From an uncultured bacterium (GTDB lineage Bacteria > Vulcanimicrobiota > CADAWZ01): a stretch of 64,000 nt of DNA. Every line of letters begins with the position of its first letter. The first letter of the stretch is position 1. The stretch covers positions 52,977-116,976 of the forward strand of contig CASEKF010000042.1 of NCBI GenBank assembly GCA_949288455.1, read 5' to 3'. The notes under the pieces were generated by a model that was not told the DNA's origin, made no database searches, and was given only the letters and a program-made list of their open reading frames with translations. This document shows positions 2,636 through 57,159 of this stretch, piece after piece. The position numbers were made by a program, and so were the translations under genes.

Positions 2636-3310
2636 TTATTTGTCCTTATTCTCCAGAAGGCCCATTGCCTCGGCAATATCTAAATTTACGCCGATAACAT
2701 TGACGGTTTCTTCGCCGAAAACACCTAAAAATTTACCTTTTGTGTTATCCTGAACGATCTGTTCCAGTTTTTCCACTCTCAGACCGGAAGAAGCCGCCAA
2801 CGCAGGAATTTGAATACGGGCAGACGCAGGGGTAATGTGCGGATCCAGTCCGGAACCGGAAGCGGTCATCAAATCAGCGGGAATATTTTCCCGCTTTACG
2901 TCTGGATTAGCTTCCAAAAACGATTGGATGTCAGCTTCGACCCGTTCGGCCAATTCCGGATTGGAAGGCGCATAGTTGTTGGAACCTGAGCTGAGTCCGG
3001 CAAACCTGCTGCCGTCATTGTAGTATTTATTGCCCTGTTCATCCTCATAATAGGTGTTATAGTTGTAAGCCGAGGGGCGACCTTTCATGAAATAGGGCTC
3101 GGTGAAATCCTGCCCTATATATGCTGACCCCACTGCCTGTCCGTTTATATAGATCAGGCTGCCATTGGCTTGACTGGGGAAAAGCACCATGGAAATGCCG
3201 CTGAGCAATACGGGAAATACAAAACCGCAGAGCAGCAACAGTATCAATGTTACTACCAAAGACTGACGCAAACCGTGCAGAAATGCGTTTTTGTTTGTTG
3301 GTTCGTTCAT
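2636..3310 (-). CDS. kdpC: K+-transporting ATPase subunit C
   Basis: 224 aa with an N-terminal TM helix, directly downstream of kdpB. The length and position are typical of KdpC. Confidence 0.85.
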   Translation of the reverse strand: MNEPTNKNAFLHGLRQSLVVTLILLLLCGFVFPVLLSGISMVLFPSQANGSLIYINGQAVGSAYIGQDFTEPYFMKGRPSAYNYNTYYEDEQGNKYYNDGSRFAGLSSGSNNYAPSNPELAERVEADIQSFLEANPDVKRENIPADLMTASGSGLDPHITPASARIQIPALAASSGLRVEKLEQIVQDNTKGKFLGVFGEETVNVIGVNLDIAEAMGLLENKDK

Positions 3311-3324
3311 AATAAGAGACCTCC

Positions 3325-5376
3325 TTAGATACCGATTGCTGTCAGTATGGGAGCAATGATAGTATCAATGATTTTGATTCCGATAAAGGGAGTGATGACT
3401 CCGCCAAGGCCATAGATCATCATATTTCGAGCCAATATTTTTTCAGAAGACATAGGACGGTATTTAACGCCTTTCATCGCCAGAGGGATCAAGCAGGGAA
3501 TGATTATCGCGTTAAAGATCAATGCGGACAGGATCGCGCTGTTTTGTGTGCTCAGCTGCATGATATTCAAAACCCCCACTTGAGGAATAATTGCCATAAA
3601 CATAGCAGGAATAATCGCAAAATACTTTGCAATATCATTTGCTATGGAGAAGGTGGTAAGAGAGCCGCGGGTGATGAGCAGCTGTTTGCCGATTTCCACT
3701 ACCTCCAGGATCTTGGTGGGGTCAGAGTCCAGATCCACCATATTGGCGGCTTCCTTAGCCGCGGTAGTGCCGGAATTCATGGCAAGGCCTACGTTTGCCT
3801 GGGCAAGAGCGGGAGCGTCGTTGGTGCCATCTCCGGTCATGGCAACGATTTTCCCTTCTGCTTGCTCCTTTTTGATGACGCTGATCTTATCTTCCGGCTT
3901 ACACTCGGCAATAAAGCCGTCCACGCCGGCCTCTTTGGCGATGGTGGCTGCGGTCAGGGGATTATCGCCTGTACACATAATGGTCTTGATGCCGATCGCG
4001 CGCAGACGTTCAAAACGTTCTACCATGCCGGGCTTTACGGTGTCTTTCAAATAAATAACGCCAAGAGCCTGATTGTTTTGGCATACAACCAGAGGGGTTC
4101 CCCCAAGCGAAGAAACCGTCTCTACATGGGCATGCAGATCAGCGGGTACTTTTCCGCCCTGAGACGTAACATATTGCTCAATAGCGTCCGAGGCTCCTTT
4201 ACGAACCTTGGTGCCATCAGGTAGATCCACGCCGCTCATGCGAGTTTGGGCTGTAAATTCCATAAAGGAAGAGCCCGGAATCTCCTCGCTGTTGTCGCCC
4301 AGACTGCGTGCCAGTTCCAGAGTGGATTTACCCTCGGGAGTTTCATCATGAAGACTGGTCAGAGCCGCACAGCGGATAAGGTCGCTGCGGTTTACCCCTT
4401 TTACGGGGAAAAAATCAGCGGCCAGACGGTTCCCGAAGGTAATGGTGCCGGTCTTATCCAAAATCATAGTGTCCACATCGCCGCAGGCTTCAACCGCTTT
4501 ACCGGACATAGCGAATACATTAAAACGGTTTACTCGGTCAATGCCGGCAATGCCGATGGCGGAAAGAAGACCGCCGATGGTGGTAGGGATCAGACAAACC
4601 ATCAGAGCGATCAAGGTGGACACTGGCAGCTGAATTCCGCAATACATTCCAATAGGGTACAAGGTGACAATAACAATCAGGAAAATAATTGTCAGGGAAA
4701 TGAGAAGCGTATTTAAAGCGATTTCGTTGGGAGTTTTTTTTCGAGATGCCCCTTCCACCAGAGCAATCATCCGATTTAAAAAGCTGTTGCCGGGATCAGA
4801 GGTGATGCGGATTTTCAGCCAGTCAGACACCACCGTAGTGCCGCCCGTAACTGAGCTGAAGTCTCCGCCGCTTTCACGAACTACGGGAGCAGACTCTCCG
4901 GTGATCGCCGATTCGTCCACTGACGCGATACCTTCGATAACCTCTCCGTCTCCGGGAATGATCTCGCCTGCCATTACTATAACGATGTCGTCCTTTTTCA
5001 GGTCTCCGGAAGAAACTAGAGTTTTGTTGCCGTCTCGATCCAACAGATGGGCTTCGGTATTTTTCTGGGTCTTCTTAAGGCTGGCGGCCTGAGCCTTACC
5101 ACGCCCCTCTGCCACTGATTCTGCAAAATTAGCAAACAGCACTGTCGCCAGCAGAATGATGGAAACAATCAAATTATACGTTCGCAGGCCGGTATCGCTT
5201 TCTCCAAATAGCCCTGGCACAATTGTCAACGTCAACGTAATAATGAAGCCAATTTCCACTACGAACATGACCGGGTTCTTGAACATATATCGGGGATCCA
5301 GTTTTTTTACCGAACCGACGATAGCCTGTTTTAGGATCTCTGGAGTCAGCAGCTTTTTATTTTTTCTTTTAGTCAT
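3325..5376 (-). CDS. kdpB: K+-transporting P-type ATPase subunit B
   Basis: 683 aa. P-type ATPase motifs [16 protein letters not shown] and [10 protein letters not shown] are present, and the length is typical of KdpB. Confidence 0.95.
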
Positions 5377-5392
5377 AGTACGAAAATCCTCC

Positions 5393-7150
5393 TTAGCCCA
5401 AAAGGGTCAGATGTTCAGCAATGGGGCCCAGTACCAGCGCAGGGAAGAAGGTCAGAGCGGCAAAGATGTACACCACGAACACAAGAATTACGGCAAAACC
5501 GACAGATCCGGTACTCAGCGTGCCGGTAGACTCGTTTACATAATTTTTTTTCATTAGCGAGCCTGCGATAGCCAATTGAATCACGATAGGCAGATACCGT
5601 CCCAGGAACATGACAATGCCGGTTGTAATATTCCAGAAATAGGTATTATCTGCCAATCCTTCAAATCCGGATCCGTTATTTGCTGCGGAAGAGGCGTATT
5701 CATACAACACTTGGCTCAAGCCATGAAAGCCGGGATTGGTAATGCCGGCTTGTCCCGCGGCCGTAGCCACTGCCAGTGCGGAGAAAGCCAGAATCAACAG
5801 AGGATGAATCATGATGGCCAATGCGGTAAGCTTCATCTCTCGGCCTTCGATTTTCTTGCCAAGATATTCGGGTGTACGTCCTACCATTAACCCGCAAATG
5901 AATACCGCCAGGATAGCGTACAAAATCATATTCATCAGGCCTACGCCTTTGCCGCCAAAGACACAGTTGAGCATCATGTGCAGCATCGGAACCATACCTC
6001 CCAGTGGCGTCAGCGTGTCATGCATATTGTTGACCGTACCTGTTGTGAAAGATGTAGTTACCGTGGTAAAGAGGGCGGATTGGGCGATGCCGAAGCGCAC
6101 CTCCTTGCCTTCCATATTGCCTTCAGACTGGTTGAGGCCAAGCTCAGCCAGAACCGGATTACCCTGCTGTTCTGCTCGGAAGCAAAGACTCAGGCCTGCC
6201 AGGAACAAAATTCCCATGCCCAAAAAGATGCTCCGTCCTTCTTTGCCGAATATTCTGGCAGTGATTCCTTCCCGACGAACAGGCGCGTTTCCCGGGGAGT
6301 TGCTCTCCTGATACCGGAGACGTCCGTCACTTAGCATCTTCCCAAAGGTAATGACGCAGGCGCCAGGCAACAGCATCATGGAATACAACTCGATCAGATT
6401 GGACAGGATTGTAGGATTCTCCATAGGGGTAGCGGAATTGCCGCCAAAAAAGCCGCCGCCATTGGTACCCAGATGCTTAATAATTTCAAGCGCCGCTACG
6501 GGACCCATCGCCAGGACTTGGAAGGTCCCCTCCATTGTTTGCACCACCACATTTTTCGAAAAGTTTTGAGGCACGCCCTGCCATACCAGCAACAATCCTC
6601 CTATCAGAGAGAAAGGCAGCAGTACTCGGGTAGTAATACGAACCAGATCGGCAAAAAAGTTTCCCACATTGTCCTTTGTCTTTCCGGCCAGCCCGCGGAT
6701 AAAAGCCATGCAGGCGGAGTAACCGCTGGCCGCAGAAACAAACATCATAAAGATAATGACCAGCATCTGAGACAGATAGCTCAAACCGCTTTCACCAGAG
6801 TAGTGCTGCAGATTGGTATTGGTCATAAAACTTATAATGGTATTGAAAGCCAGCGTGGGTTCCATTCCCTCAATACTATTGGGATTAAAGAGCGGGATGC
6901 TCTGGATACGGAGAAGAATGTAACCAATGGCGGTCATTACCGCATTTGTGCCAATAAGGGCCATGGCGTACTGTTTCCAGTTCATGCCCTTGTGGGGTTC
7001 TATTCCGCTTAACTTATAAATCGCCCCATCTACCCGATCAAATAAGGGATCGGCAAAGGTGCGTTTTTCTGCGGCGATATGATAAAGATACCGCCCTACC
7101 GGAATGACAAGGATCAGATAAATGATTAATGTCAGAACCAGCTGTATCAT
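5393..7150 (-). CDS. kdpA: K+-transporting ATPase subunit A
   Basis: Polytopic membrane protein of about 585 aa. Start reassigned to ATG 7148-7150 ([23 protein letters not shown]...), preceded by acaGGAGGactttcat. The 31-aa N-terminal extension in the ORF track overlaps kdpF. Confidence 0.9.
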
Positions 7151-7184
7151 ATGAAAGTCCTCCTGTACTGTTGTGTCCTCGACA

Positions 7185-7262
7185 TTAAAATCGCTCCGGA
7201 TGTACCAAGGCGTATAGCAGATATCCGCCCACCAGCAAAACAATAATTCCGAGCAAAATCAT
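7185..7262 (-). CDS. kdpF: K+-transporting ATPase subunit F (25 aa, MILLGIIVLLVGGYLLYALVHPERF)
   Basis: Hand translation of the minus strand immediately upstream of kdpA. GYLLYALVHPERF matches the KdpF consensus (E. coli GYLVYALINAEAF). An AGGAG is about 8 nt upstream. Confidence 0.6.
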   Translation of the reverse strand: MILLGIIVLLVGGYLLYALVHPERF

Positions 7263-7284
7263 ACTTTTCAACTCCTACTTTTTA

Positions 7285-7383
7285 TTATTCTTGTGAATTT
7301 ACCTGCCGCTGGCACCAATTCGCAAACGTCCAGACAAGGCCAAAAGCAACCGACAGGATTCCCGCCGTCAAACAATCCATCAT
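7285..7383 (-). CDS. Small hydrophobic peptide ORF (32 aa, MMDCLTAGILSVAFGLVWTFANWCQRQVNSQE) upstream of kdpF
   Basis: GAAAGGAG RBS lies 6 nt before the ATGATG. One predicted TM helix. Sits between the kdpD stop and kdpF. Below the size cut-off of the ORF track. Confidence 0.3.
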   Translation of the reverse strand: MMDCLTAGILSVAFGLVWTFANWCQRQVNSQE

Positions 7384-7674
7384 ATTCGGGCTCCTTTCAT
7401 TGATATAATTGATATAAATGATACCATTGCCGCATATGTAATGTGCTCAACGATAATCGTCAACGTATATTCCCCGATGATAACGTTGATTATAACTATG
7501 CGAAACGACATATACTTGCCGCAAGATCTTTATTCTTTCGCAGTTGACAGGCAAGTGATATATGCAATCTCTCTTTTGAGCTTATAGCATACCACAATCT
7601 GTAATAAGCGGGGATTAAGGAAGATAACGGGATATTAACAGGAGATTAATATTTTCCCATTTTATTTCAGCAAA

Positions 7675-10353
7675 CTATTTTACTTTGTCCGGAAAAACCA
7701 GCGGAAGCGTAAACTGGAATGTAGTTCCAGTCGGCAGATGATCCAAAACGGCAATTTCTCCTCCATGTATCGCGACAATAGATTGACAGAGGCTGAGTCC
7801 GAGTCCCAGGCCTCTTTGACAATCCGTCTTTTCTTGCCCCGCAGTGTAAAATAAATTGAACAAATGCTTTTTTGCATTATCTGGAATGCCCGGACCGTCA
7901 TCCGTGACGCTGATTTGCACAACTTGTCCTTTTTGTACGGCGCGTAGTTCAATATTTGATCCTTTAGGCGTGTATTGAATTGCGTTGTTCATTATATTGA
8001 TCAAAACTCGCTGGATAAGTGTCGCATTCATCATAGCCATGCGTGCGTTATCATCCAGATGTACCGATATGCGGTGTTCTTCCGCTCTGTGATCCAGATG
8101 TGAGACTGTATTCCGAAAAAGAGCTTCTATCGGTTCTGCGCTCATTTTGAACGATTCCTTATCTGTTTCCAGCCGAGTGGCTGCCAACAAATTTTCTGCC
8201 ATGTTAATCAGCCAGTTTGTATCGTCATAAATGGCCATGTAGAGTTTTTTCCTGATTGCGGGATCCGGCGTCGACTCTTCTTGCATAAGCGCATCGGTAC
8301 TGTTTTTGATATTTGTAAGCGGCGTTTGTAAATCATGGGAAACTGCGCGAAGCAAATCCGCTTGCAGTCTCTCTTTTTGTATTTGCAGCGCTGCTTTATT
8401 ACGCTCTTCCTGTAGTCGGATGCGTTCCTGGCTGAGACCACATGCACTTAAAATAGCAGTCATCAGGTTTTTTTCAAAGGCATCTGGGATGGAGTAACCT
8501 GCAATTGGAATGCCTACAATCCCCATAACGCCTTGCGTGCCTCTGACCGAGAGAAAGAGCAATTTAGCGTCCGGCAGAGTATTTGTGGTCGCGCCGGCAT
8601 GTTTATTGTTTCTTTGTACCCACTTGGCCACCCCGATTTCTTCGGAACTCAACTCGGCTAAAATCTTCTCTTCATCGGATGGCTCTACTCGAAATGCCAA
8701 CTCTTTTTCCGATTCACTTAAGGTATAGAGAATGGGACGATCAAAAAGTCGATTTAATTGTTCCGCAGTCAACCTAAGGCAATCCCATTCGGTTCGCCCT
8801 TGTTGCAGTTTTTGACTACTTCCAAAAAGCAATTCCGTATAATAGCTCTTTTGCGCCGCTAAGCTGGCCTGTGCCTTTACACGGCTGGCCAGCGAGCTCG
8901 CAATAACGCTGGAAAAAAGCATAATCAGAAATGTTACGGGATAACCGGGGTCATTGGCTTGAAAGGAAAAGCGAGGTTCTGTAAAAAGAAAATTGAAAGC
9001 GGCGACGCCAAGGAGAGACTCAATTGCGCCATAAAAATGGCCGTTTGTCCAAACTGCGGTAATCAGAACGCCCAAAATGTAAACGGTTATAATGTTTGAT
9101 TCGCTGAATCCGGCATAATAAAACCCATATCCGGCAATTGAAGAAAATATTAAAGAGGCCAGCATAATGCCTGTATCTTTCCATGTAAAACGCGCTTTTG
9201 GAACACGAAGCTTTCCAAGAGGCTGTTTATATAGCGGCTGGTGATCTGGAATAATGTATATATCCAGATCTGTTCGTTCAATCAGACGATCAGCCAGACT
9301 TTTTTGCCCCATAATCGGGTTTTGTTTATGATTGATGCGGCCCATAACAATTTTCGTTACGCCACTGACTCGAGCATATTCCGCAATCTGTACTGCCGGG
9401 TCAGTCCCGTATACCGTAGAAATTTGTGCTCCCAACTGTTCCGCAAGGCGCAGGTTGCTGCGCAGGCGCTTCAAATTTTCGCCGGATAATTCCTTTGTTT
9501 CCGGCGTCTGCACAAACAATGCTGTAAAACCGCTGTGAAAGGCTTCTGCCATTCGTGCGGCGGTTCGGATCACTTTTGCATTGGAAGGTGCAGACGAAAG
9601 GCAAATCAAGATATGTTCTCCGGCTTTTGCGCTCTTTTTCTTTCCCTCCTGCAATGCAGTTCGGTTTAGTTGATCTGCCGTACGTCGCATAGCGATTTCA
9701 CGCAAAGCGGCCAGATTTTCTGTGGTAAAAAAGTTCTGAAGCGCCTGAGCAGCCTGGAGCTCCCTGTAGACTTTTCCCATCTGAAGGCGTTTTACCAGCT
9801 CGTTCGGCTCAATATCAACCAGTTCGACTTGATTTGCTCGGTCAAAAATATGATCCGGGATTCGCTCGTTGACTGTAATACCTGTGATGGAGGATACCAA
9901 ATCGTTTAGCGACTCTAAATGCTGCACATTAACCGTGGTATAGACGTTGATTCCAGCTTGAAGCAGTTCTTCTATATCCTGATACCGTTTGGTATGCCGG
10001 CACCCTTGGGCATTATTATGGGCCAATTCGTCTACCAGAATGATTTCTGGTCTTCTTTGCAACGCTCGATCCAGATCAAATTCTTTCAGCTTAATTCCGC
10101 GATAGTCAATCTCTTTGCAAGGCAAAATCTCCAGCCCATCCAAGAGAGCCAATGTATCTGCTCTGGCATGCGGTTCCACATAGCCCGCCACAATATCTGC
10201 GCCCTCTTTTTTAGCCTGATGGGCCGCCTCCAGCATGGCGTAAGTTTTACCTACGCCCGCTGCATAGCCAAAAAAGATTTTTAGCTTTCCGGCAAGGATC
10301 GTACCGTCCGCATCTATCTTGACGCCTGACCTTGTCTGCTGCGTTCTATCCAT
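7675..10353 (-). CDS. kdpD: Full-length osmosensitive K+ channel sensor histidine kinase KdpD
   Basis: 892 aa. N-terminal P-loop (GYAAGVGKTYAM), Usp-like region, 4 TM helices, GAF domain, H-box SHDLQTPL and HATPase (DDGPGIP). Confidence 0.9.
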   Translation of the reverse strand: MDRTQQTRSGVKIDADGTILAGKLKIFFGYAAGVGKTYAMLEAAHQAKKEGADIVAGYVEPHARADTLALLDGLEILPCKEIDYRGIKLKEFDLDRALQRRPEIILVDELAHNNAQGCRHTKRYQDIEELLQAGINVYTTVNVQHLESLNDLVSSITGITVNERIPDHIFDRANQVELVDIEPNELVKRLQMGKVYRELQAAQALQNFFTTENLAALREIAMRRTADQLNRTALQEGKKKSAKAGEHILICLSSAPSNAKVIRTAARMAEAFHSGFTALFVQTPETKELSGENLKRLRSNLRLAEQLGAQISTVYGTDPAVQIAEYARVSGVTKIVMGRINHKQNPIMGQKSLADRLIERTDLDIYIIPDHQPLYKQPLGKLRVPKARFTWKDTGIMLASLIFSSIAGYGFYYAGFSESNIITVYILGVLITAVWTNGHFYGAIESLLGVAAFNFLFTEPRFSFQANDPGYPVTFLIMLFSSVIASSLASRVKAQASLAAQKSYYTELLFGSSQKLQQGRTEWDCLRLTAEQLNRLFDRPILYTLSESEKELAFRVEPSDEEKILAELSSEEIGVAKWVQRNNKHAGATTNTLPDAKLLFLSVRGTQGVMGIVGIPIAGYSIPDAFEKNLMTAILSACGLSQERIRLQEERNKAALQIQKERLQADLLRAVSHDLQTPLTNIKNSTDALMQEESTPDPAIRKKLYMAIYDDTNWLINMAENLLAATRLETDKESFKMSAEPIEALFRNTVSHLDHRAEEHRISVHLDDNARMAMMNATLIQRVLINIMNNAIQYTPKGSNIELRAVQKGQVVQISVTDDGPGIPDNAKKHLFNLFYTAGQEKTDCQRGLGLGLSLCQSIVAIHGGEIAVLDHLPTGTTFQFTLPLVFPDKVK

Positions 10354-10764
10354 GGTTTTTTTCTCCTATAATAACGGTCTGCGGTATACATGAGTGTTTA
10401 TATCATACCATGCGGAATACTATAAAATAATAAAAAATTGCCTGAGCGTATTAAGAACAAATAAAGATATATACAACTAAAACAGGCCGAATCTCTCTGT
10501 TTTCAAACGGTATCCGGCTTGTAAAAAATAATATTGGATTGAACTATCAATCAAGCGTTTCCTGTGAATTTATTTAGAAGTCTGTCATGACAGAAAAAGA
10601 GATTTTCATCTTGAAAAAAATATTATAAGGCTGGATTTATAGTATTACATCTTTCTATAACTCATTTTTCCCGATTATACTCATTATTATTCCCCTTTCG
10701 TTAATATAATATTGTTTATTTTATGTTAATATTAAATACGGAAATATATTATTTTTTGATTTTA

Positions 10765-10793
10765 TTGACACGTAGTGAAGTCGATTTTATTAT
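10765..10793 (+). promoter_or_regulatory. Sigma70-like promoter candidate (TTGACA-17-TATTAT) in the AT-rich spacer upstream of the Gly/Ala-rich gene pair
   Basis: TTGACA at 10765-10770, a 17-nt spacer, then TATTAT at 10788-10793. The first downstream ATG with an RBS is at 10960. Confidence 0.3.
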
Positions 10794-10959
10794 TCGTATC
10801 ATTTGACTGCGTTTATTTAAGCGCTATATTAACTATTGCGAAATTTGTTCATATTTTTTTAACAGCCTATATCTCCCGATATTTTTTACAATTTGTTATA
10901 ATAATATCAAGTTATTTAAGCGTGCTTATTTGGCGGTTTTTATAAGAGGTAATATAATA

Positions 10960-12699
10960 ATGAATAATCTGTCTTCTTCGGTAGCGATATCCGGTCAGTC
11001 TTATTCTCAGCGGGATAAAAACTTGAATTTAGAGCATGCGCTTCAAGACGAAAAGCCTGCGCTTAAAAAGATTGCCGATTATTTTGAGCCCAGAGAAACT
11101 ACAAGCGGGGATTTAGAGTACTCTTCTCCTAAAAAAGCAGCTTTTGCCGGAGGCGTGAAAGGTCTTTTTTCCGGCGGTATTACCGGAGCCGCCGCAGGCG
11201 TTTGCGGCGGATATGTCGGCGTTAGGGTTGGAGAAGAAACGGGGTCCATGACTAAAGCTCTTGCTGCCGGCGGCGCAGTAGGAGCCGGAACTCTTATAGC
11301 CGGAAGTTCGCTTCTTGCTTCCGCCGCAGGCGGAGCTTCAGTCGCAGCGTCGGTCGGGGGCTTGGCGTTGGCAGGAGCAGTCGGAGGAGGATTGGGAGCC
11401 GCGATTAAGCAAGTACAAAATAATAGCGAAACTGAATTAAATCCTAGTGTTAAAACTTTAGCTCCGATAGCCGTGGGAGTTGCGGCCGGAGCTGCCGCCG
11501 GAGCGATATCAGGGCCGGTAGGAGCCGTTGCCGGAGCCGTTGTGGGCGGATTGTCAGCCGCTTTAAGTAAGCCGGTAAGCGACGAAAAGTCTGCGGGGAA
11601 AGCTTCTCTTCTTTCCGCCGCGGTTTCTGCGGGAGCCGGAGCCGTGACCGGAGGAGTCCTTGCAGCGGCTTCTTCTTCAAACCCTATTAATGGGGCTAAA
11701 GCACTTTCGGCCGTCGGATTATTGGGTGGTTTAACGGGAGCTTCAGCCGTTATTTCCGGAAGCCGAGAATCTGATATTAGGGACGCTTCTGCGGGAGGAT
11801 TTACAGCCGCCGCTTTAACCGAAGCTTTTACGGGTTTGGGCGGAGGAACTGTGAGCATGGCCGCTTCTATAGGCGGCGCAGTAGGAGCTCGTTTTGAAAA
11901 TAAGGCCGGAAAGGTTATTGCGGCAGGTTTAACCGGAGGAGCTTTAGGCGCCGCAGGAGGGGCTTTCGCAGGTCCGGTAGGCGCGGCTTCGGGAGCGACT
12001 TTAGGCGCGGCTACGTCTATTGTCGGAGCCGTGGGCGGTCCTAAAGTTCAGCAAGGAATAAGGAATTTTACCGAAGATCTTCAAAAAAAGATACAGCCTT
12101 TTTCTGAAAAAGTCAGTTCTTTTATTATAGATAAATTGGGAGAAGAAAAAGGTTTGACGGCCGTTGGAGCTATTACCGGAGCTCTAGGTTCCATTCCGGT
12201 AGGATTGCTGGCCGGAGCCGTTTTGGGGCCTATAGGCGCGGCTGCGGCTTTAGCCGTATCCGCCATTGCCGGAGGATTTAAATTCTCCAATATAGCTAAA
12301 GAACTTTCCGATTTAAAAACGGTTAGAAGCGAAATGGCGGCTAAAGGTCCTTCGCTTGAAGATATTAATTCTTATATGTGTCAGGCCGCTTTTAAAAAAA
12401 TAGAGCCTCAATTGGCAAATTTATCTCCTGAAGAGAAAAAAGAGTTTTATGAAGAGCTTTATAAACAAAGTTTTGTAGAGTTAAAAACTAAAGAAAAAGA
12501 AATTAAAGAAGCTGCAAAACAGCTTGCCGACGCCGTTTACGCCGAGTTGAAACCTATGCTTGGCGAAATAGACGATAAGGAAGATAAACAGAAATTTATC
12601 AGCGGGCAGATTTCTTCTTCAAAACCTGTTTTAACTAATCTTATGGCCGAGTATACCGTATCTATGCTTCAATCTTCAGCTTCTTCGGCCTCTGAGTAA
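10960..12699 (+). CDS. Gly/Ala-rich glycine-zipper protein, paralog 1 (function unknown)
   Basis: Start moved to ATG 10960 (AAGAGG 10 nt upstream; the track start at 10930 is TTG). About 580 aa. N-terminal motif E(Y)SSP..GVKG..GG..G and VGEETGSxxKAL, a long run of GxxxG/AxxxA repeats, and a charged helical C-terminus. No signal peptide. The antisense ORFs 11079-11858 and 12081-12290 are compositional artefacts. Confidence 0.6.
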   Translation: MNNLSSSVAISGQSYSQRDKNLNLEHALQDEKPALKKIADYFEPRETTSGDLEYSSPKKAAFAGGVKGLFSGGITGAAAGVCGGYVGVRVGEETGSMTKALAAGGAVGAGTLIAGSSLLASAAGGASVAASVGGLALAGAVGGGLGAAIKQVQNNSETELNPSVKTLAPIAVGVAAGAAAGAISGPVGAVAGAVVGGLSAALSKPVSDEKSAGKASLLSAAVSAGAGAVTGGVLAAASSSNPINGAKALSAVGLLGGLTGASAVISGSRESDIRDASAGGFTAAALTEAFTGLGGGTVSMAASIGGAVGARFENKAGKVIAAGLTGGALGAAGGAFAGPVGAASGATLGAATSIVGAVGGPKVQQGIRNFTEDLQKKIQPFSEKVSSFIIDKLGEEKGLTAVGAITGALGSIPVGLLAGAVLGPIGAAAALAVSAIAGGFKFSNIAKELSDLKTVRSEMAAKGPSLEDINSYMCQAAFKKIEPQLANLSPEEKKEFYEELYKQSFVELKTKEKEIKEAAKQLADAVYAELKPMLGEIDDKEDKQKFISGQISSSKPVLTNLMAEYTVSMLQSSASSASE

Positions 12700-12712
12700 G
12701 GAGTCGTTAGTT

Positions 12713-14044
12713 ATGAATTCCGTGAACATATCCGGATCTAGTCAGCCTGAGACGCGCGTTTGTAACGACGTAAAGAGGGACGGAAATTTAAAAAATAAAA
12801 TAACTGAAAAAATAGAAGATATTTTTGAACCGAAGCCGGACACTTCCGGTAATAAGATTTATTCTTCGCCTTTAGACGCCGCTTGGAGCGGAGTAAAAAA
12901 AGGATTTACCGCCGGAGGATTGGCATGCGTTCCTTCCGGAGTCTTAGGAGGCATAGCCGGAACGAGAGTTGGAGAGGAAACCGGCTCCCTTGCTAAAGCG
13001 TTGATCGCCGGATCGACGGTAGGAGCCGGAAGCGTTTTTTTAGGCTCCGGCTTATTAGAGGCTGCAGCCGGCAATTCTGTTATGGTTTTAAACGTTGGAG
13101 CTATGGCCGGAGCCGGAGCCGTTGCCGGAGGAGTTGGCGCGGCAATTAAGCATTTATCTGCTTCAAAAGGCATAGAATCTGCCTTTATAAAGAAAGTTCT
13201 GCCGGTTTGTGCCGGCGTTGCTTCAGGAGCTGCTCTTGGAGCTATAGGAGGGCCTATTGCGACGGCTGCAGGAGCCGTTATAGGAGGCGTTTCAGCCGCT
13301 TTGAGCCGTCCAAGCGAGGGTTTTGAAGGGGATGTTAAGGGAACTGTTAAAGCTTCTCTTCTTTCTTCCGCCGTAGCCGGCGGGACAGCCGCCGTAGCCG
13401 GAGGACTTTTGGCGTCGGTTTCGGCAGATCCTTCGGTCGTTTCCGATACCGTTAGGAATCTGGCGATAGCCGGAGGCCTGGCGGGAGGAGCCGCTTCCGT
13501 TTCGGGAGCCAGGCTTTCGGAAATGAAAGACGGAGCTTCCGCCGCTTCAAAGGCCGTGTCTATAGCTTCTGCGTTGTCTTCCGGGAAAGTAGGCGGCTTA
13601 ACGTCTTTATCTTCGTCGATTGGAGGAGCTATAGGCTTGCGCGCCGATACTGTTCATGGAAAGGCGTTGCTTTCCGGTTGCGTAGGCGGAGCCGTAGGAG
13701 CTGTTTCCGGCATAGCCGCAGGCCCCGCAGGCATGGTTGCCGGAGCGATTTTAGGAGCGGTCGCTTCTTCTATAGGAGCCTCGGCAGGCCCTAAATTAAA
13801 ACAAGCCGTTAGGAATGTTAAAGAAGCCGTTTTAGATAAATGCGAACCCGTCTTAATTAAAATTGACGGTAAGCTGGAACAATTCATTGATAAATTTGAA
13901 GGACCGGCGTCTAAGGTTTTGGGCGAAAAAACTGGAGAAAAGTTGACGGAATTTGTAAAGGAAAAAATAGACGATGCCATAGATCCAAAACCTATAGATT
14001 TGGAACAGTATGATTTAGATAAACCTTATAATAAAAAAGAATAG
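12713..14044 (+). CDS. Gly/Ala-rich glycine-zipper protein, paralog 2 (function unknown)
   Basis: 443 aa. RBS TAAGGAG lies 13 nt after the paralog-1 stop. Shares the N-terminal YSSP / VGEETGSLAKAL motifs and the Gly-zipper core with paralog 1. Confidence 0.6.
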   Translation: MNSVNISGSSQPETRVCNDVKRDGNLKNKITEKIEDIFEPKPDTSGNKIYSSPLDAAWSGVKKGFTAGGLACVPSGVLGGIAGTRVGEETGSLAKALIAGSTVGAGSVFLGSGLLEAAAGNSVMVLNVGAMAGAGAVAGGVGAAIKHLSASKGIESAFIKKVLPVCAGVASGAALGAIGGPIATAAGAVIGGVSAALSRPSEGFEGDVKGTVKASLLSSAVAGGTAAVAGGLLASVSADPSVVSDTVRNLAIAGGLAGGAASVSGARLSEMKDGASAASKAVSIASALSSGKVGGLTSLSSSIGGAIGLRADTVHGKALLSGCVGGAVGAVSGIAAGPAGMVAGAILGAVASSIGASAGPKLKQAVRNVKEAVLDKCEPVLIKIDGKLEQFIDKFEGPASKVLGEKTGEKLTEFVKEKIDDAIDPKPIDLEQYDLDKPYNKKE

Positions 14045-14404: not shown

Positions 14405-14416
14405 TTTATCTCCTTA

Positions 14417-14450
14417 TAAAAAAGGCGGCTATCGCTCGGCCGCCTTTTTT
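14417..14450 (-). terminator. Rho-independent terminator after the GAF-protein gene
   Basis: GGCGGC-tatcgctcg-GCCGCC stem-loop flanked by A-run and T-run (aaaaaaGGCGGC...GCCGCCtttttt). Confidence 0.55.
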
Positions 14451-14457
14451 ATTTTGT

Positions 14458-16493: not shown

Positions 16494-18302
16494 TTATTTT
16501 TCTTTTGTTTTTAAGACGGCAAGAAAAGCTTCCTGTGGAATTTCGACGCTGCCGATAGTTTTCATGCGTTTTTTGCCTTCTTTTTGTTTTTCTAATAATT
16601 TGCGCTTTCTTGATATATCCCCTCCGTAACATTTAGCTAAAACGTTTTTTCTAAGAGCGGATATCGTTTCTCTGGCTATGATTCTTCCGTTTGCCGCAGC
16701 TTGGATAGGTATTTGAAACATATGTCTCGGTATCGTGTCTTTTAAGTTTTCCGTAAGACGCTTCGCTGCTTCGTACGCGTTATCTTTATGTACTATCAAA
16801 CTTAAAGCGTCGACTTTTTCCGAATTCACAAGTATCTCAAGTTTGATAAGAGGAGCTTCTTGATATCCTATAATTTCATAATCTAAAGAGGCGTATCCTT
16901 TCGTGACGGATTTAAGTTTATCAAAAAAATCTGTAATTATTTCTCCAAAGGGAATTTCATAAGTTATAATAAATCGGTTGTCCATGTAACAGGTCATATC
17001 TTTGTAAATTCCGCGTTTTGATTGGCATAATTCCATCACCGGGCCGACAAAGTTTTCGGGTACTATTATCACCGCTTTAACCAAAGGCTCTTCTATATAT
17101 TTAATTTTAGTAGGATCGGGAAGTTCCGATGGGTTTTCTATATCTAAGATTTCTCCGTTTGTAAGATATACTTTGTACACTACGGAAGGAGCTGTCGCTA
17201 TAATATTCAGTCCGTATTCTCGTTCTAGTCTTTCCTCGATGATTTCCATATGAAGAAGTCCTAAAAAACCGCATCTGAAACCAAAACCAAGAGCTATAGA
17301 TTTTTCCTGTTCAAAGACAAGCGCCGCGTCGTTAAGCTGAAGTTTTTCCAGAGCGTCTCTTAAAGTTTCGTAGTGGACGTTTTCGACAGGATAAATTCCG
17401 CAATAGACCATCGGCAAAACTTCTCTGTAACCCGGCAAAGGCTCGTTAGATCCGTTTTCAGCCAACGTAACGGTATCGCCGACTCTCGTATCTCTAATAT
17501 CTTTGATTTGAGCGATTAAATATCCTACGTCTCCGGCTTTTAATTCTTCGGTTTTTTTCATGTCAGGAGTAAATATTCCAACTTCGTCTGTTTCATAACA
17601 TTTATCCGTTGACATGAGCTTGATCATGCTTCCTTTTGATATGCTCCCGTCTATAATTCGTATGAAGAGGACGACTCCTCTGTAAGGATCGTACTGAGAA
17701 TCAAAAATTAAAGCCCTGAGCGGAGCGTCTTCGCGTCCGTCGGGAGAAGGAAGTTTCTCTACCAGAGCCTTTAGAACTTCGTCTGTTCCTATTCCTTCTT
17801 TTGCGGATATTAAAATAGCGTCGTCCGCAGGCAGAGCTAAAACGTCTTCTATTTCTGTTTTTACTCTTTCCGGATCGGCTATGGGAAGATCTATTTTATT
17901 GATGACGGGAATAACTTCCAGCTTATTTTCTACGGCTAGAAAGTAATTCGCCATCGTTTGAGCTTCTACTCCTTGGGACGCGTCTATTATTAATACCGCT
18001 CCTTCGCATGCCGCCAGACTCCTGGAAACTTCGTAGGTAAAATCGACATGTCCCGGAGTGTCTATAAGATTAAGCTGGTAAGTCTCGCCGTCTGAAGATT
18101 GGTAATAAATAGTTACGGGATGAGCTTTTATCGTAATGCCTCGTTCTTTTTCCAGCGCCATTTTATCAAGTACTTGGGCTTCCATATCTCTTTCCTTTAT
18201 CGTGCCCGTCGCTTCTAAAAGCCTATCGGCAAGCGTGGATTTGCCATGATCTATATGCGCTATAATGCAGAAATTTCTGATTCTGCTCATTCTTTCGTTC
18301 AT
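16494..18302 (-). CDS. lepA: Elongation factor 4 (LepA)
   Basis: N-terminus [28 protein letters not shown], and the LepA-specific C-terminal domain. 602 aa. Confidence 0.9.
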
Positions 18303-55138: not shown

Positions 55139-55723
55139 TTAGATCATTCCTATAGCTAATTTTCTTGTTTTACCGCATATCAAACATTTAAATTCGGCTA
55201 CGGCCCATCTGGATACTTTTTCAGTTTCTTGCTGAGGGAGCGGAGCGTAAGCATGTTTATGATCCGAGTCTCCTTCTTTTATATAAATTACTTTCTGTCC
55301 TTTCGTTCTGAAAACGATTATGCTTTCCATATCGAGCATTTTAGAGTATTCTATGCTCATGGAATACGATTTGCCGTCCGGAAGGGGAGTAAACTTACAT
55401 TGGCTTCTTATTTCCGATATGGGCATTATTCTGCCGTCTACGGGTTTGCCGTCCGCGCTCATTTCTACAATACAAAGATGTGACGAAGAAGCCAGGCTTT
55501 TCTCGGTAAGAGTGAATCTTACCGTTTTAGAAGTTTTTCTCTCTCTTGGGAACGCTGAGCAGACTCTTATTTTATATCCTTCGGGAGTCTCAAGATTGTA
55601 GCCGGTTTCTTGTCCGACCTTTACGCACCCTGAACCAAAAAGGGACATTACATAATCTACCGCAATTTTATTGCGGCTGAAAGATTGCTGTGAGGATGGC
55701 ATTTTCGTTAATCCTGTTCTCAA
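55139..55723 (-). CDS. Hypothetical protein (194 aa)
   Basis: ORF with an RBS. No recognised domain. Confidence 0.4.
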   Translation of the reverse strand: MRTGLTKMPSSQQSFSRNKIAVDYVMSLFGSGCVKVGQETGYNLETPEGYKIRVCSAFPRERKTSKTVRFTLTEKSLASSSHLCIVEMSADGKPVDGRIMPISEIRSQCKFTPLPDGKSYSMSIEYSKMLDMESIIVFRTKGQKVIYIKEGDSDHKHAYAPLPQQETEKVSRWAVAEFKCLICGKTRKLAIGMI

Positions 55724-55851: not shown

Positions 55852-57159
55852 TTAAACCAGCCCTTCCATTAATTTACCTCCCAATTCGGCTCCTTTATCT
55901 CCGCATAATATTGAGCCCGCTATACTTCCTATAAATCCTCCTATTACCGTTCCTATTCCGGGACATATTGCCGTTCCTATCGCCGCTCCTACTGCCGTGC
56001 CGGCCATGTCTCCTACTTTATCTCCGATTATTCCGCCTACTGCTCCGCCTAATCCTACTAATATTTTTTCTCCGGTACTTAGTTCTTTGCCGTTTTCTTC
56101 AGCGTTTTGAATGGCGTCATGAGCTCCCGAGATTCCGCTGACGGCTATGTCAAGTCCCGGAATCGCCTTCCCAATAGTTGTTAATACTTTCTCTCCCGTT
56201 TCCGAGCCTACTTTTGAGCCCACTTTAGCGGTTAAGTCGGCAGCCGCTTTCCCCAAGTCGTCAGCTTTAGTTATGTTTATTGCCCCGGCTAAGTCGGTAA
56301 CTTTTTTGCCTATGTCGCTCGGATTAGCGTTTTTCAGCGTTTCTCCCGCGCCTTGGGTTATTTCTAAAATATCCTTTGTGACGGAGAGGCCGTCGGTAGC
56401 TGCGCTTTGAACGTCTCCCTCTTTTATGGAATTTACCAAGCTGGCTCCGTCGGCCGCTAATCCAAGTCCGGAGCTAATTTTATCAAAAGCTTTGGAATCG
56501 CTCTTTATATCGGGAAGAATTTCGGATATTGCGGCCTTGGTTTGCGGATCTACGTCAGGAAGCATGTCCGAGATTCCGTTTGAGAGTTTGTCTGTTATTT
56601 CGTCTTTTTTCGTTTGCATATTTTGCGGCAGAAGGCTTGTTATTTTGTCTCCTATACCGGGGCCTTTATCTGGAAACTTTTTATCGTTTTCTAAAAATTC
56701 CAGACCTTTGACGGTTCCTTCTAAATATTTTGAATGTTCGTCAGCTATATCCGCGGCGTATCCTAACGGATCGCCCGAGGCCGCATCTTCGGATTCTTCC
56801 GAATTTTCGGTAGAAGTTGAAGGTTGAGCGGTTTTATTCTCGGTATTCGTCTTAGCTTCGCTGTTTGTCGGCCGGCTTTGAGACTTGTTTCCGGATATCT
56901 CGGCATTTTCCTCTTGCGATTCGTCCGTAAAATTTTTGAGGAGCGGACTCACGTCGTTATCGTCGTCTTCTTCAGGTTCGGATATAGATACGTTATCTTG
57001 AGTCGGTTCGGTTTTTGAGGCCGCTTTAGTTTCCGAGGTCTTGGAAGTCGCTTTAGTTTCCGTAGTCTTGGAAGTCGATTCGGTTTTAGACACGCTTTGA
57101 GATTTAGCTGTAGTAGAGCTTTTATTTACGCCGGAAATAGGTTCGATAGGATCTGACAT
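55852..57159 (-). CDS. Glycine-zipper protein with S/T/K/E-rich N-terminal half (function unknown)
   Basis: 435 aa. The C-terminus GGAVGGIIGDKVGDMAGTAVGAAIGTAICPGIGTVIGGFIGSIAGSILCG is a classic GxxxG zipper. The N-terminus is low-complexity. No signal peptide. Confidence 0.55.
   Translation of the reverse strand: MSDPIEPISGVNKSSTTAKSQSVSKTESTSKTTETKATSKTSETKAASKTEPTQDNVSISEPEEDDDNDVSPLLKNFTDESQEENAEISGNKSQSRPTNSEAKTNTENKTAQPSTSTENSEESEDAASGDPLGYAADIADEHSKYLEGTVKGLEFLENDKKFPDKGPGIGDKITSLLPQNMQTKKDEITDKLSNGISDMLPDVDPQTKAAISEILPDIKSDSKAFDKISSGLGLAADGASLVNSIKEGDVQSAATDGLSVTKDILEITQGAGETLKNANPSDIGKKVTDLAGAINITKADDLGKAAADLTAKVGSKVGSETGEKVLTTIGKAIPGLDIAVSGISGAHDAIQNAEENGKELSTGEKILVGLGGAVGGIIGDKVGDMAGTAVGAAIGTAICPGIGTVIGGFIGSIAGSILCGDKGAELGGKLMEGLV

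Follow-up and report, generated by a model that had tools for sequence, protein, structure and literature searches.

Gene organisation of the P1-P2 locus

The stretch of DNA analysed here (64,000 nucleotides of contig CASEKF010000042.1, from an uncultured bacterium; hereafter the window) carries two adjacent genes of the plus strand, P1 (10960..12699, 579 amino acids) and P2 (12713..14044, 443 amino acids), encoding glycine- and alanine-rich proteins with glycine-zipper repeats. A first-pass annotation, made from the sequence letters, had presented them as a tandem same-strand pair of paralogues with a 13 nt spacer and a ribosome-binding site each, and this description stands: the two products are paralogues with 43% identity over 396 amino acids (composition-adjusted BLASTP, E 4e-62). 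Both are genuine genes on the chromosome of a member of Xenobia (Eremiobacterota), and they belong to an undescribed cellular protein family, named here F2, of which P1 is a full-length member of the long form and P2 a lineage-specific, truncated and divergent paralogue of P1. No other genes in the window are as unusual as these two, in agreement with the earlier annotation.

The open reading frame (ORF) lister starts P1 at a TTG codon at position 10930. The likely start is the ATG at 10960, because the ribosome-binding site AAGAGG (10944..10949, plus strand, read from the sequence) lies 10 nt upstream of it, homologues begin with MNNISS or MNSVS, and public collections contain a gene call for exactly this 579 amino acid product. 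The spacer between P1 and P2 (13 nt, 12700..12712, plus strand, GGAGTCGTTAGTT) is identical across eight assemblies and carries, directly after the P1 stop codon, the GGAG that serves as putative ribosome-binding site of P2; spacing and site together imply that P1 and P2 form an operon, in which translation is possibly coupled.

Upstream, P1 is divergent from kdpD, which is located on the minus strand. The intergenic region (10354..10959, 606 bp up to the ATG, 27% GC) is nearly invariant in seven other assemblies from the same population. Of the AT-rich leader with a promoter described by the first-pass annotation, the promoter-like site is retained as a sigma-70-like candidate, TTGACA-17-TATTAT (10765..10793, plus strand), matching the consensus, and consensus only, at 11 of 12 positions; the stretch as a whole is not merely a leader but the divergent region that P1 shares with kdpD, for which an Rfam scan gave zero matches at gathering score or E<=1 and whose repeats are AT-rich low-complexity sequence with none notable. 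At the four other Xenobia F2 loci with a readable upstream gap, the gap measures about 90-250 bp and long leaders are not seen.

Opposite P1 there is a 259 amino acid, Ala/Pro-rich ORF (11079..11858, minus strand). It was rejected as a gene, since homologues, substitution rates and public gene calls favour the plus-strand frame, and it is judged to be an antisense shadow produced by the GCN and GGN codons of the sense strand.

Selection and recurrence

In the species-representative genome set the closest relatives of P1 come from Candidatus Xenobia or from uncultured metagenome-assembled genomes (MAGs) of rumen or horse faeces (51-62% identity), and orthologues of P1 are found in five Xenobia or uncultured rumen/horse-gut genome assemblies. 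Among the Xenobia orthologues the ratio of nonsynonymous to synonymous substitution rates (dN/dS), taken from unsaturated synonymous sites only, is 0.07-0.14, and between P1 and these orthologues it is 0.10-0.17. These orthologues occur as single copies with non-mobile surroundings, and purifying selection acts on them. For P1 against P2 the ratio is about 0.33, with synonymous sites saturated. The gene order P1, P2, CGGC-domain gene and GAF-domain gene is seen again in seven metagenome assemblies from this population, which are nearly identical in DNA and hence uninformative on selection. Co-occurrence of the pair across genomes, which the first-pass annotation had considered, is found in these seven assemblies; the other Xenobia loci carry a single long-form gene and no P2-type gene.

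Protein family F2

Neither P1 nor P2 has a match above noise in Pfam and NCBIfam or a meaningful match in PHROGs and PADLOC, in agreement with the earlier view that they belong to no characterised family. Core members of F2 likewise gave nothing in Pfam and NCBIfam beyond sub-threshold glycine-zipper models, sequence and profile searches of the PDB gave zero relatives of F2, and no relatives were found on the viral contigs of IMG/VR. Weak matches were to polytopic transporters, to a spidroin bundle rich in Ala and Ser, and to SlyB.

The size of the family depends on the method of search. A word-indexed search with P2 returned eight proteins only, while an exhaustive hidden Markov model (HMM) search of 1.84 billion proteins gave 225 cluster representatives at E<1e-3, 66 at E<1e-10 and 32 at E<1e-30. 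To the F2 HMM, P1 scores at E 4.5e-107 and P2 at E 1e-77. Some of the matches cover the generic hairpin only, among them a tape-measure-like protein and proteins of about 100 amino acids which pass Pfam Gly-zipper_Omp.

Most F2 members have 320-450 amino acids, with a core of about 330 composed of an N-terminal motif followed by glycine-zipper helical hairpins. Four motifs characterise this core: (D)Y(T)(K)PRP.T.GD..SSP at the N-terminus, GE(K/E)TGS, LSGSR....RD..YGG and GP..(R)Q..RN.TED. The shared N-terminal module and the VGEETGS motif that had been noticed in P1 and P2 are thus present and conserved in the homologues. The invariant positions are the GxxxG glycines of the helices (pairs G64/G68, G256/G260, G326/G330 and G356/G360) and D, Q, R and N residues of the loops, and all of the conserved polar residues (PR..T.GD, GE.TGS, SR....RD, Q..RN.TED) are located in the short loops between hairpins. 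A long form of 580-680 amino acids, with extra middle hairpins and a charged helical C-terminal domain, is represented by P1, its Xenobia orthologues and the proteins P0005-P0007, P0009, P0012 and P0169. One F2 member is labelled as an Armatimonadota MAG protein; the high-GC F2 loci have a GC content of 0.66-0.73, which fits Eremiobacteria, and two distant members are found on contigs of 1.3 and 7.6 Mb with about 40% GC.

Architecture and predicted membrane topology

In P1 the conserved N-terminal motif, IADYFEPRETTSGDLEYSSP (residues 38-57, 11071..11130, plus strand), precedes the first hairpin and is invariant or near-invariant at D40, Y41, P44, R45, T48, S56 and P57. It is followed by seven glycine-zipper helix-turn-helix hairpins (residues 57-440, 11128..12279, plus strand), delimited by AlphaFold helices and charge-free segments, which with their loops make up about 66% of the protein. 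Successive hairpins are joined by short, conserved loops (RVGEETGS, SRESDIRD, GPKVQQGIRNFTED). The charged helical C-terminus already described for P1 corresponds to a domain of residues 441-579 (12280..12696, plus strand) which is found in long-form members only; AlphaFold places helices at 466-578 with a predicted local distance difference test score (pLDDT) of 75-85, and searches with this domain gave no significant match (Pfam DUF4110 sub-cutoff, PDB E >=0.4).

The periodicity of small residues is above that of shuffled sequences, as had been suspected. The pattern [GAS]xxx[GAS]xxx[GAS] is found 83 times versus 45.9 +/- 6.5 in shuffles, GxxxG 32 times versus 12.4 +/- 3.0, and the periodicity has a z of about 6; glycine, alanine and serine together account for 43% of P1. 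The extent of the repeats, given earlier as about 60% of the length, was put too high: the charge-free Gly/Ala segments of P1, eight in number and 21-50 amino acids long, cover 270 of 579 residues (47%), and those of P2 cover 193 of 443 (44%).

AlphaFold models of both proteins are all-alpha and contain repeated helical hairpins, a feature that the first-pass annotation had proposed to look for, seven in P1 and six in P2. The P1 model (pLDDT 66.7; predicted template modelling score, pTM, 0.52; alignment of 10 sequences) has its turns at G, P, N or S, and the P2 model (pLDDT 73.6, pTM 0.63, alignment of 35 sequences) reaches 85-91 in residues 31-110 and 250-400.

No hydrophobic signal-like segment is present at either N-terminus, as had been stated; the first apolar window starts at residue 68 in P1 and at residue 64 in P2. 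On the Hessa scale the best 19-residue windows have values of 2.5-5.8 kcal/mol in P1 (11 windows) and 3.0-5.6 in P2 (seven windows). For comparison, most of the true transmembrane helices of KdpA, KdpB and RodA, encoded in the same window, score under 2 and some reach 3-4.5, and the soluble LepA and GAF proteins have at most one window below 6. The helices of P1 and P2 are clearly apolar and marginally hydrophobic. Charge was scored over 35 F2 members of 23-60% identity, and is 0-2% in six of the seven helical segments scored and 5.6% in the last, versus 20-35% in the loops between hairpins. In all seven of these loops K+R exceeds D+E, while the turns within hairpins are 1.4-4.6 residues long and essentially uncharged. 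By the positive-inside rule, an established feature of membrane proteins, the positive loops and uncharged turns, together with the lack of a signal peptide, point to an inner-membrane hairpin protein with both termini inside (N-in/C-in). From these sequence properties it is very likely that the glycine-zipper helices of P1 and P2 are membrane-embedded.

Divergence of P2

P2 has six hairpins and lacks the seventh as well as the C-terminal domain. Thirty-four positions were taken as conserved in F2, each in at least 85% of the other 33 sequences. P1 keeps the consensus at all 34 of them, and P2 deviates at about ten (Y37I, R41K, R272K, G278A, A300S, D372A and the glycines lost with the last hairpin). 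Given this divergence, its looser constraint and its absence elsewhere in Xenobia, P2 appears to be a recent, species-level, degenerate duplicate. Given the 13 nt spacing within one operon, P2 would most likely co-assemble with P1 as an accessory subunit, which is a conjecture.

Genomic partners of F2 in other lineages

For the neighbourhood analysis, 25 non-redundant F2 genes in 24 loci were grouped at <70% identity into 15 lineages. In five of these a gene of a second undescribed family, F1, is located within 10 kb of F2, and in four it is directly adjacent (loci L004, L012, L025 and L026/27); in L008/L030-32 it lies about 5 kb upstream. F1 proteins have two or four glycine-zipper membrane helices around a conserved domain with the motifs W.(E/Q)PV....LG.IP..(Y/H)Y and KG(Y/W).H.F(S/T)P.I.Y..(V/L)G, and this domain is probably extracytoplasmic. 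They come in a two-helix form (Xenobia and L012) and a permuted four-helix form (high-GC lineages), and the Xenobia-type and high-GC proteins are homologous by reciprocal profiles (E 1e-12 to 1e-24). Searches of Pfam, NCBIfam and the PDB gave no relatives of F1 beyond glycine-zipper noise. The F1 genes are located at 6911-9787 and 11830-12759 of L004, 12086-14177 of L012, 2-1309 of L025, 7595-8674 of L026 and 1093-2163 of L008.

Proteins of a third family, F5, contain many glycine-zipper helices in their first 230 or so amino acids, after which most have a coiled coil about 300 residues long. F5 co-occurs with F2 in three lineages, and its loci include L026 5801-9851, L030 1516-6647 and L008 120-3789. 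In L026 the three families form a tight operon, with F5 at 5801-7591, F1 at 7595-8674 and F2 at 8676-9851, separated by gaps of 4 nt and 2 nt. Several paralogous copies of F5 are found in the high-GC cluster which also carries two PilT-like ATPases. The combination of F2-type hairpins with a membrane-anchored coiled-coil protein such as F5 recalls Mic10 and Mic60, in what we take to be an analogy only.

Genes of type IV filament systems are found next to F2 in some lineages. In three high-GC lineages (L008/L030-32, L014 and L016/L029) F2 is followed, at a distance of 0.4-2 kb, by a pair of PilT-like ATPases of the T2SSE type, and in rumen Xenobia pilin arrays are located directly upstream of the F2 orthologue (L005 and L007). 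In these arrays (L005 375-9686, L007 210-9908) genes with a prepilin motif (MNKKGFTILE...) alternate with genes for proteins of 750-950 amino acids, whose N-terminus is hydrophobic and resembles PilX/GspK and whose C-terminal ...TGTFK.FNRI is conserved.

F1 and F2, which are non-homologous, share the protein start M-[NDQ]-x-[IV]-[STN]. Among the 656 ORFs of at least 150 amino acids in all loci it is found in ten, and nine of the ten are F1 or F2 (starts at 10960 and 12713 of the window, 3700 of L003, 6911, 8117, 8957, 10001 and 11830 of L004, and 13042 of L012). The similarity is at the level of the peptide, since the genes use different codons for it and have dissimilar DNA upstream. Of the five proteins of the high-GC cluster, the four that are not F1-like begin with MNVT, MNVS, MQVS or MQVV. 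This shared N-terminus could be a targeting signal or could reflect a preference in translation initiation.

Taken together, these gene links argue for F2 being a subunit of a membrane assembly made up of several proteins.

Comparison with known glycine-zipper proteins

The hairpin of F2 resembles that of the Pfam families PF13488 (Gly-zipper_Omp), PF13441 (Gly-zipper_YMGG) and PF05433 (Rick_17kDa_Anti or 'Glycine zipper 2TM'), examples of which are the SlyB- and YfgH-type lipoproteins, and which consist of a helix-G(G)P-helix hairpin of about 40 amino acids with GxxxGxxxG in both helices. The part of the F2 profile that covers P1 residues ~160-215 retrieves the proteins of about 100 amino acids mentioned above, which exceed the PF13488 threshold, and some core F2 homologues and F1 proteins have sub-threshold matches to the Pfam glycine-zipper models. 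P1 and P2 themselves gave no match at E<=1 to PF13488, PF13441, PF05433 or PF13436. In distinction to these families they have six or seven tandem hairpins in place of one, no lipoprotein or Sec signal, polar loop motifs specific to F2 and, in P1, the helical C-terminal domain; the Pfam families are located in the outer membrane, whereas the predicted location of F2 is the inner membrane.

Glycine-rich membrane hairpins that oligomerise via small-residue faces are also known from small proteins of eukaryotes and organelles, such as C19orf12-like proteins (PF20721), Romo1 (PF10247) and Mic10. Two core F2 members match C19orf12 at up to 2e-5, sub-cutoff, and one matches Romo1 weakly. These proteins, however, are single hairpins of about 80-160 amino acids with no motifs in common with F2 beyond the glycine zipper, and the comparison gave no evidence of homology to F2.

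Marginally hydrophobic glycine-zipper helices like those of P1 and P2 are found in toxins of type VI secretion (T6SS), type VII secretion (T7SS) and contact-dependent inhibition (CDI) systems, such as the N-terminal zipper of Tde1, TelE, EsxX, TspA and ionophoric CdiA-CT, which use them to enter membranes or disturb them. In those toxins they are short modules, fused to trafficking domains (LXG, CdiA and others), polymorphic and accompanied by immunity genes and secretion systems, none of which was found for P1 and P2 in the window. Class II bacteriocins are prepeptides of less than about 100 amino acids with a double-glycine leader, a C39-type ATP-binding cassette exporter and an immunity gene; P1 and P2, of 579 and 443 amino acids, have no match to Bacteriocin_IIc, and their neighbours are kdpD, CGGC, GAF and lepA. 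Phage tape-measure proteins offer a further likeness, since the 1401 amino acid, tape-measure-like P0061 matches the F2 profile in eight stretches with GGP-centred hairpin repeats. The match is to the generic hairpin only, and P1 and P2 have neither a PHROG match nor flanking phage genes.

Glycine-zipper membrane proteins known so far are mainly single hairpins, small stress lipoproteins and toxin modules. F2 would, if the present reading is true, represent a new architecture among them.

Interpretation of P1 and P2

The explanation we lean towards, tentatively and at somewhat less than even odds, is that P1 and P2 are resident inner-membrane hairpin-array proteins which oligomerise via glycine-zipper faces, expose conserved loops to the cytoplasm and are in other lineages part of a wider module. 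Both would reside in the inner membrane of the producer as an N-in/C-in array, with hairpins that span or dip into the bilayer and only the uncharged turns, of 2-5 residues, reaching the far side. The conserved loops and the helical C-terminal domain of P1 would face the cytoplasm, and the small-residue faces would pack the helices tightly within and between subunits. F2 might then be an oligomeric membrane scaffold or a channel-like core that docks cytoplasmic partners, with P2 as an accessory subunit co-assembling with P1. In other lineages F2 would work with F1, a bitopic or tetratopic protein contributing the only sizeable extracytoplasmic domain, and with the glycine-zipper and coiled-coil protein F5, at times beside type IV filament genes. 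The envelope-associated structural pair which the first-pass annotation had offered as one of two examples comes close to this reading, and in that general sense it is kept; the other example, a membrane-active effector pair, is not.

Several observations weigh against a resident hairpin array. No segment of P1 or P2 falls below 2 kcal/mol, so that they stay short of canonical transmembrane hydrophobicity, and co-translational insertion of the helices is not assured. The confidence of the AlphaFold models is medium. Ten of the 15 lineages have no F1 in the available flanks, and no F1, F5, PilT or prepilin genes were found in the 64 kb window, so that the multi-protein module is extrapolated from other lineages. 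The N-terminus shared by F1 and F2 could, as an export signal, favour a secreted protein.

A more specific proposal, which we regard as unlikely, is that F2, F1 and F5 constitute an unrecognised multi-protein inner-membrane module of Eremiobacterota and neighbouring uncultured lineages, built almost wholly of glycine-zipper helices and cytoplasmic coiled coils. Such a module might be a novel platform, a channel or a membrane-shaping complex, possibly coupled to PilT, and its N-terminal signature may be a targeting signal.

The marginal hydrophobicity of 2.5-5.8 kcal/mol is what would be expected of proteins that are soluble before insertion. P1 and P2 could accordingly be a secreted or delivered membrane-disrupting effector pair, either a pore-forming toxin whose paralogue acts as partner or in the manner of an immunity protein, or a bacteriocin of two components, with zippers that insert into the membrane of a target. 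Glycine zippers recur in the membrane toxins of T6SS, T7SS and CDI systems (e.g. PMC10240207, PMC12744356), the conserved extreme N-terminus of F1 and F2 might be a signal, and one copy of the gene pair is degenerate. This explanation, which takes up the effector pair named first in the first-pass annotation, is nevertheless improbable. There is no double-glycine leader, searches of Pfam and NCBIfam found no LXG, PAAR, Rhs, MIX or CdiA-type trafficking domain in P1 or P2, and a scan of the window proteins found no secretion, export or small immunity genes. Purifying selection acts on the orthologues, which occur in single copy and are conserved by vertical descent, and the codon usage of P1 and P2 is native; the proteins do not occur in phage and defence libraries or on viral contigs, and the conserved loops obey the positive-inside rule of resident membrane proteins. 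To our knowledge, moreover, proteins of 579 and 443 amino acids with six or seven hairpins far exceed any glycine-zipper toxin domain. Hydrophobicity short of that of canonical transmembrane helices, with the 43% of glycine, alanine and serine in P1, would suit soluble or extracellular helical-bundle structural proteins, be they silk-like, matrix-like or a cytoplasmic scaffold. We consider this very improbable: an export signal peptide is absent, even at phylum-level divergence the conservation of glycines and polar loop motifs holds for individual positions and not for composition only, and the helices are charge-free throughout the family, where the variable surface of a soluble bundle should bear at least some charge. 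Loops and turns differ in the way of the positive-inside rule, and the partners F1 and F5 have clearer hydrophobic glycine-zipper membrane helices.

That F2 serves a type IV filament machine (pilus or pseudopilus) as an accessory or as part of its platform, with cytoplasmic loops docking PilT-type ATPases, is suggested by its position 0.4-2 kb upstream of the PilT-like T2SSE pair in three lineages of <70% identity and by its place after the arrays of prepilin-motif and GspK/PilX-like genes in rumen Xenobia. The sole cultured member of Eremiobacterota is a diderm that lacks flagella and relies on type IV pili for movement (PMC9758169). Against this, pilus genes are absent from the window and most lineages have no such neighbour, the PilT linkage may be inherited synteny within one high-GC clade, and F2 is unlike any of the known pilus components, such as PilC/GspF or PilMNOP, so that we hold a dedicated role in the filament machine to be rather improbable as well. 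Finally, G/C-rich first and second codon positions and the long antisense frame are what compositionally biased, non-functional ORFs or annotation artefacts might look like. This possibility, raised in the first-pass annotation as non-expressed biased ORFs, is effectively refuted by the homologues with conserved motifs across many metagenomes, dN/dS values of 0.07-0.17, a separate ribosome-binding site for each gene, confident AlphaFold helices and the agreement of independent public gene calls, all of which favour real genes.

The Eremiobacterota, and the gut class Xenobia in particular, are experimentally almost unstudied, and unannotated families are common among them; those that are conserved are a place to find lineage-specific cell biology. 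F2 is clearly a real family, with conserved motifs and purifying selection, and has a distinctive and testable architecture of tandem hairpins with conserved polar residues on one face, and recurrent partners in F1 and F5 and sometimes in PilT-like ATPases. If the resident hairpin array is the true explanation, it offers a handle on envelope or pilus-related biology of an uncultured phylum, and even if F2 is a plain structural membrane protein, an unsupported "toxin pair" annotation is removed.

Genomic setting and other features of the window

The genes scanned in the window are kdpDABC, the CGGC-domain and GAF genes, lepA (16494-18302), a bacterial alpha-2-macroglobulin, miaA, rodA and an [FeFe]-hydrogenase, with no mobile or phage functions among them. 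The LepA protein has 75-77% identity to sequences labelled Vulcanimicrobiota, Candidatus Eremiobacteraeota and Candidatus Xenobiia bacterium LiM19, which, with the relatives of P1, assigns the window to a chromosome of class Xenobia in Eremiobacterota. The GC content at third codon positions (GC3) is 0.37 in P1 and 0.39 in P2, and 0.32-0.40 in the native neighbours lepA, GAF, alpha-2-macroglobulin and rodA. The values at first and second positions (GC1 and GC2) are raised in P1 and P2 to 0.58/0.52. The local GC bump is therefore an effect of amino acid composition, by way of Gly and Ala codons, and not of gene transfer. The compositional junction with the kdp genes seen by the first-pass annotation has to be read differently, since it is the block of kdpC, kdpB and kdpA (2636-7243, minus strand; GC3 0.51-0.57) that is atypical by GC3; kdpD is intermediate (0.45). 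This block is foreign-looking in composition and may have been acquired horizontally.

The kdpD/P1 region had also been called the longest noncoding region of the window, which is not clearly so. Downstream of kdpC about 2.2 kb (380-2635) contain no ORF of more than 143 amino acids and have no Rfam match, and could be decayed genes or unrecognised non-coding sequence.

The gene at 55852-57159 (minus strand, 435 amino acids, product P3) had been named a third relative of the pair. It has no detectable homology to P1 or P2 (best BLASTP E 0.27), and only the C-terminal hairpin region is similar in composition. P3 has a repetitive, Ser/Thr/Lys-rich N-terminus and a C-terminal glycine-zipper region, of which residues 265-430 match phrog_3405 (1.8e-9) and phrog_794, 'tail length tape measure protein' (3.5e-5); there is no match in Pfam or NCBIfam. 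The neighbouring ORF of 194 amino acids (55139-55723) is also unannotated.

No terminator-like site was found between P2 and the convergent CGGC gene. A strong bidirectional terminator-like hairpin, with 15 pairs and T-runs on both sides, is located at 14416-14452 between the CGGC and GAF genes. ARAGORN calls a tRNA-Ile(tat) at 6800-6880 on the plus strand, opposite the coding strand of kdpA and within that gene, and this call is almost certainly false.

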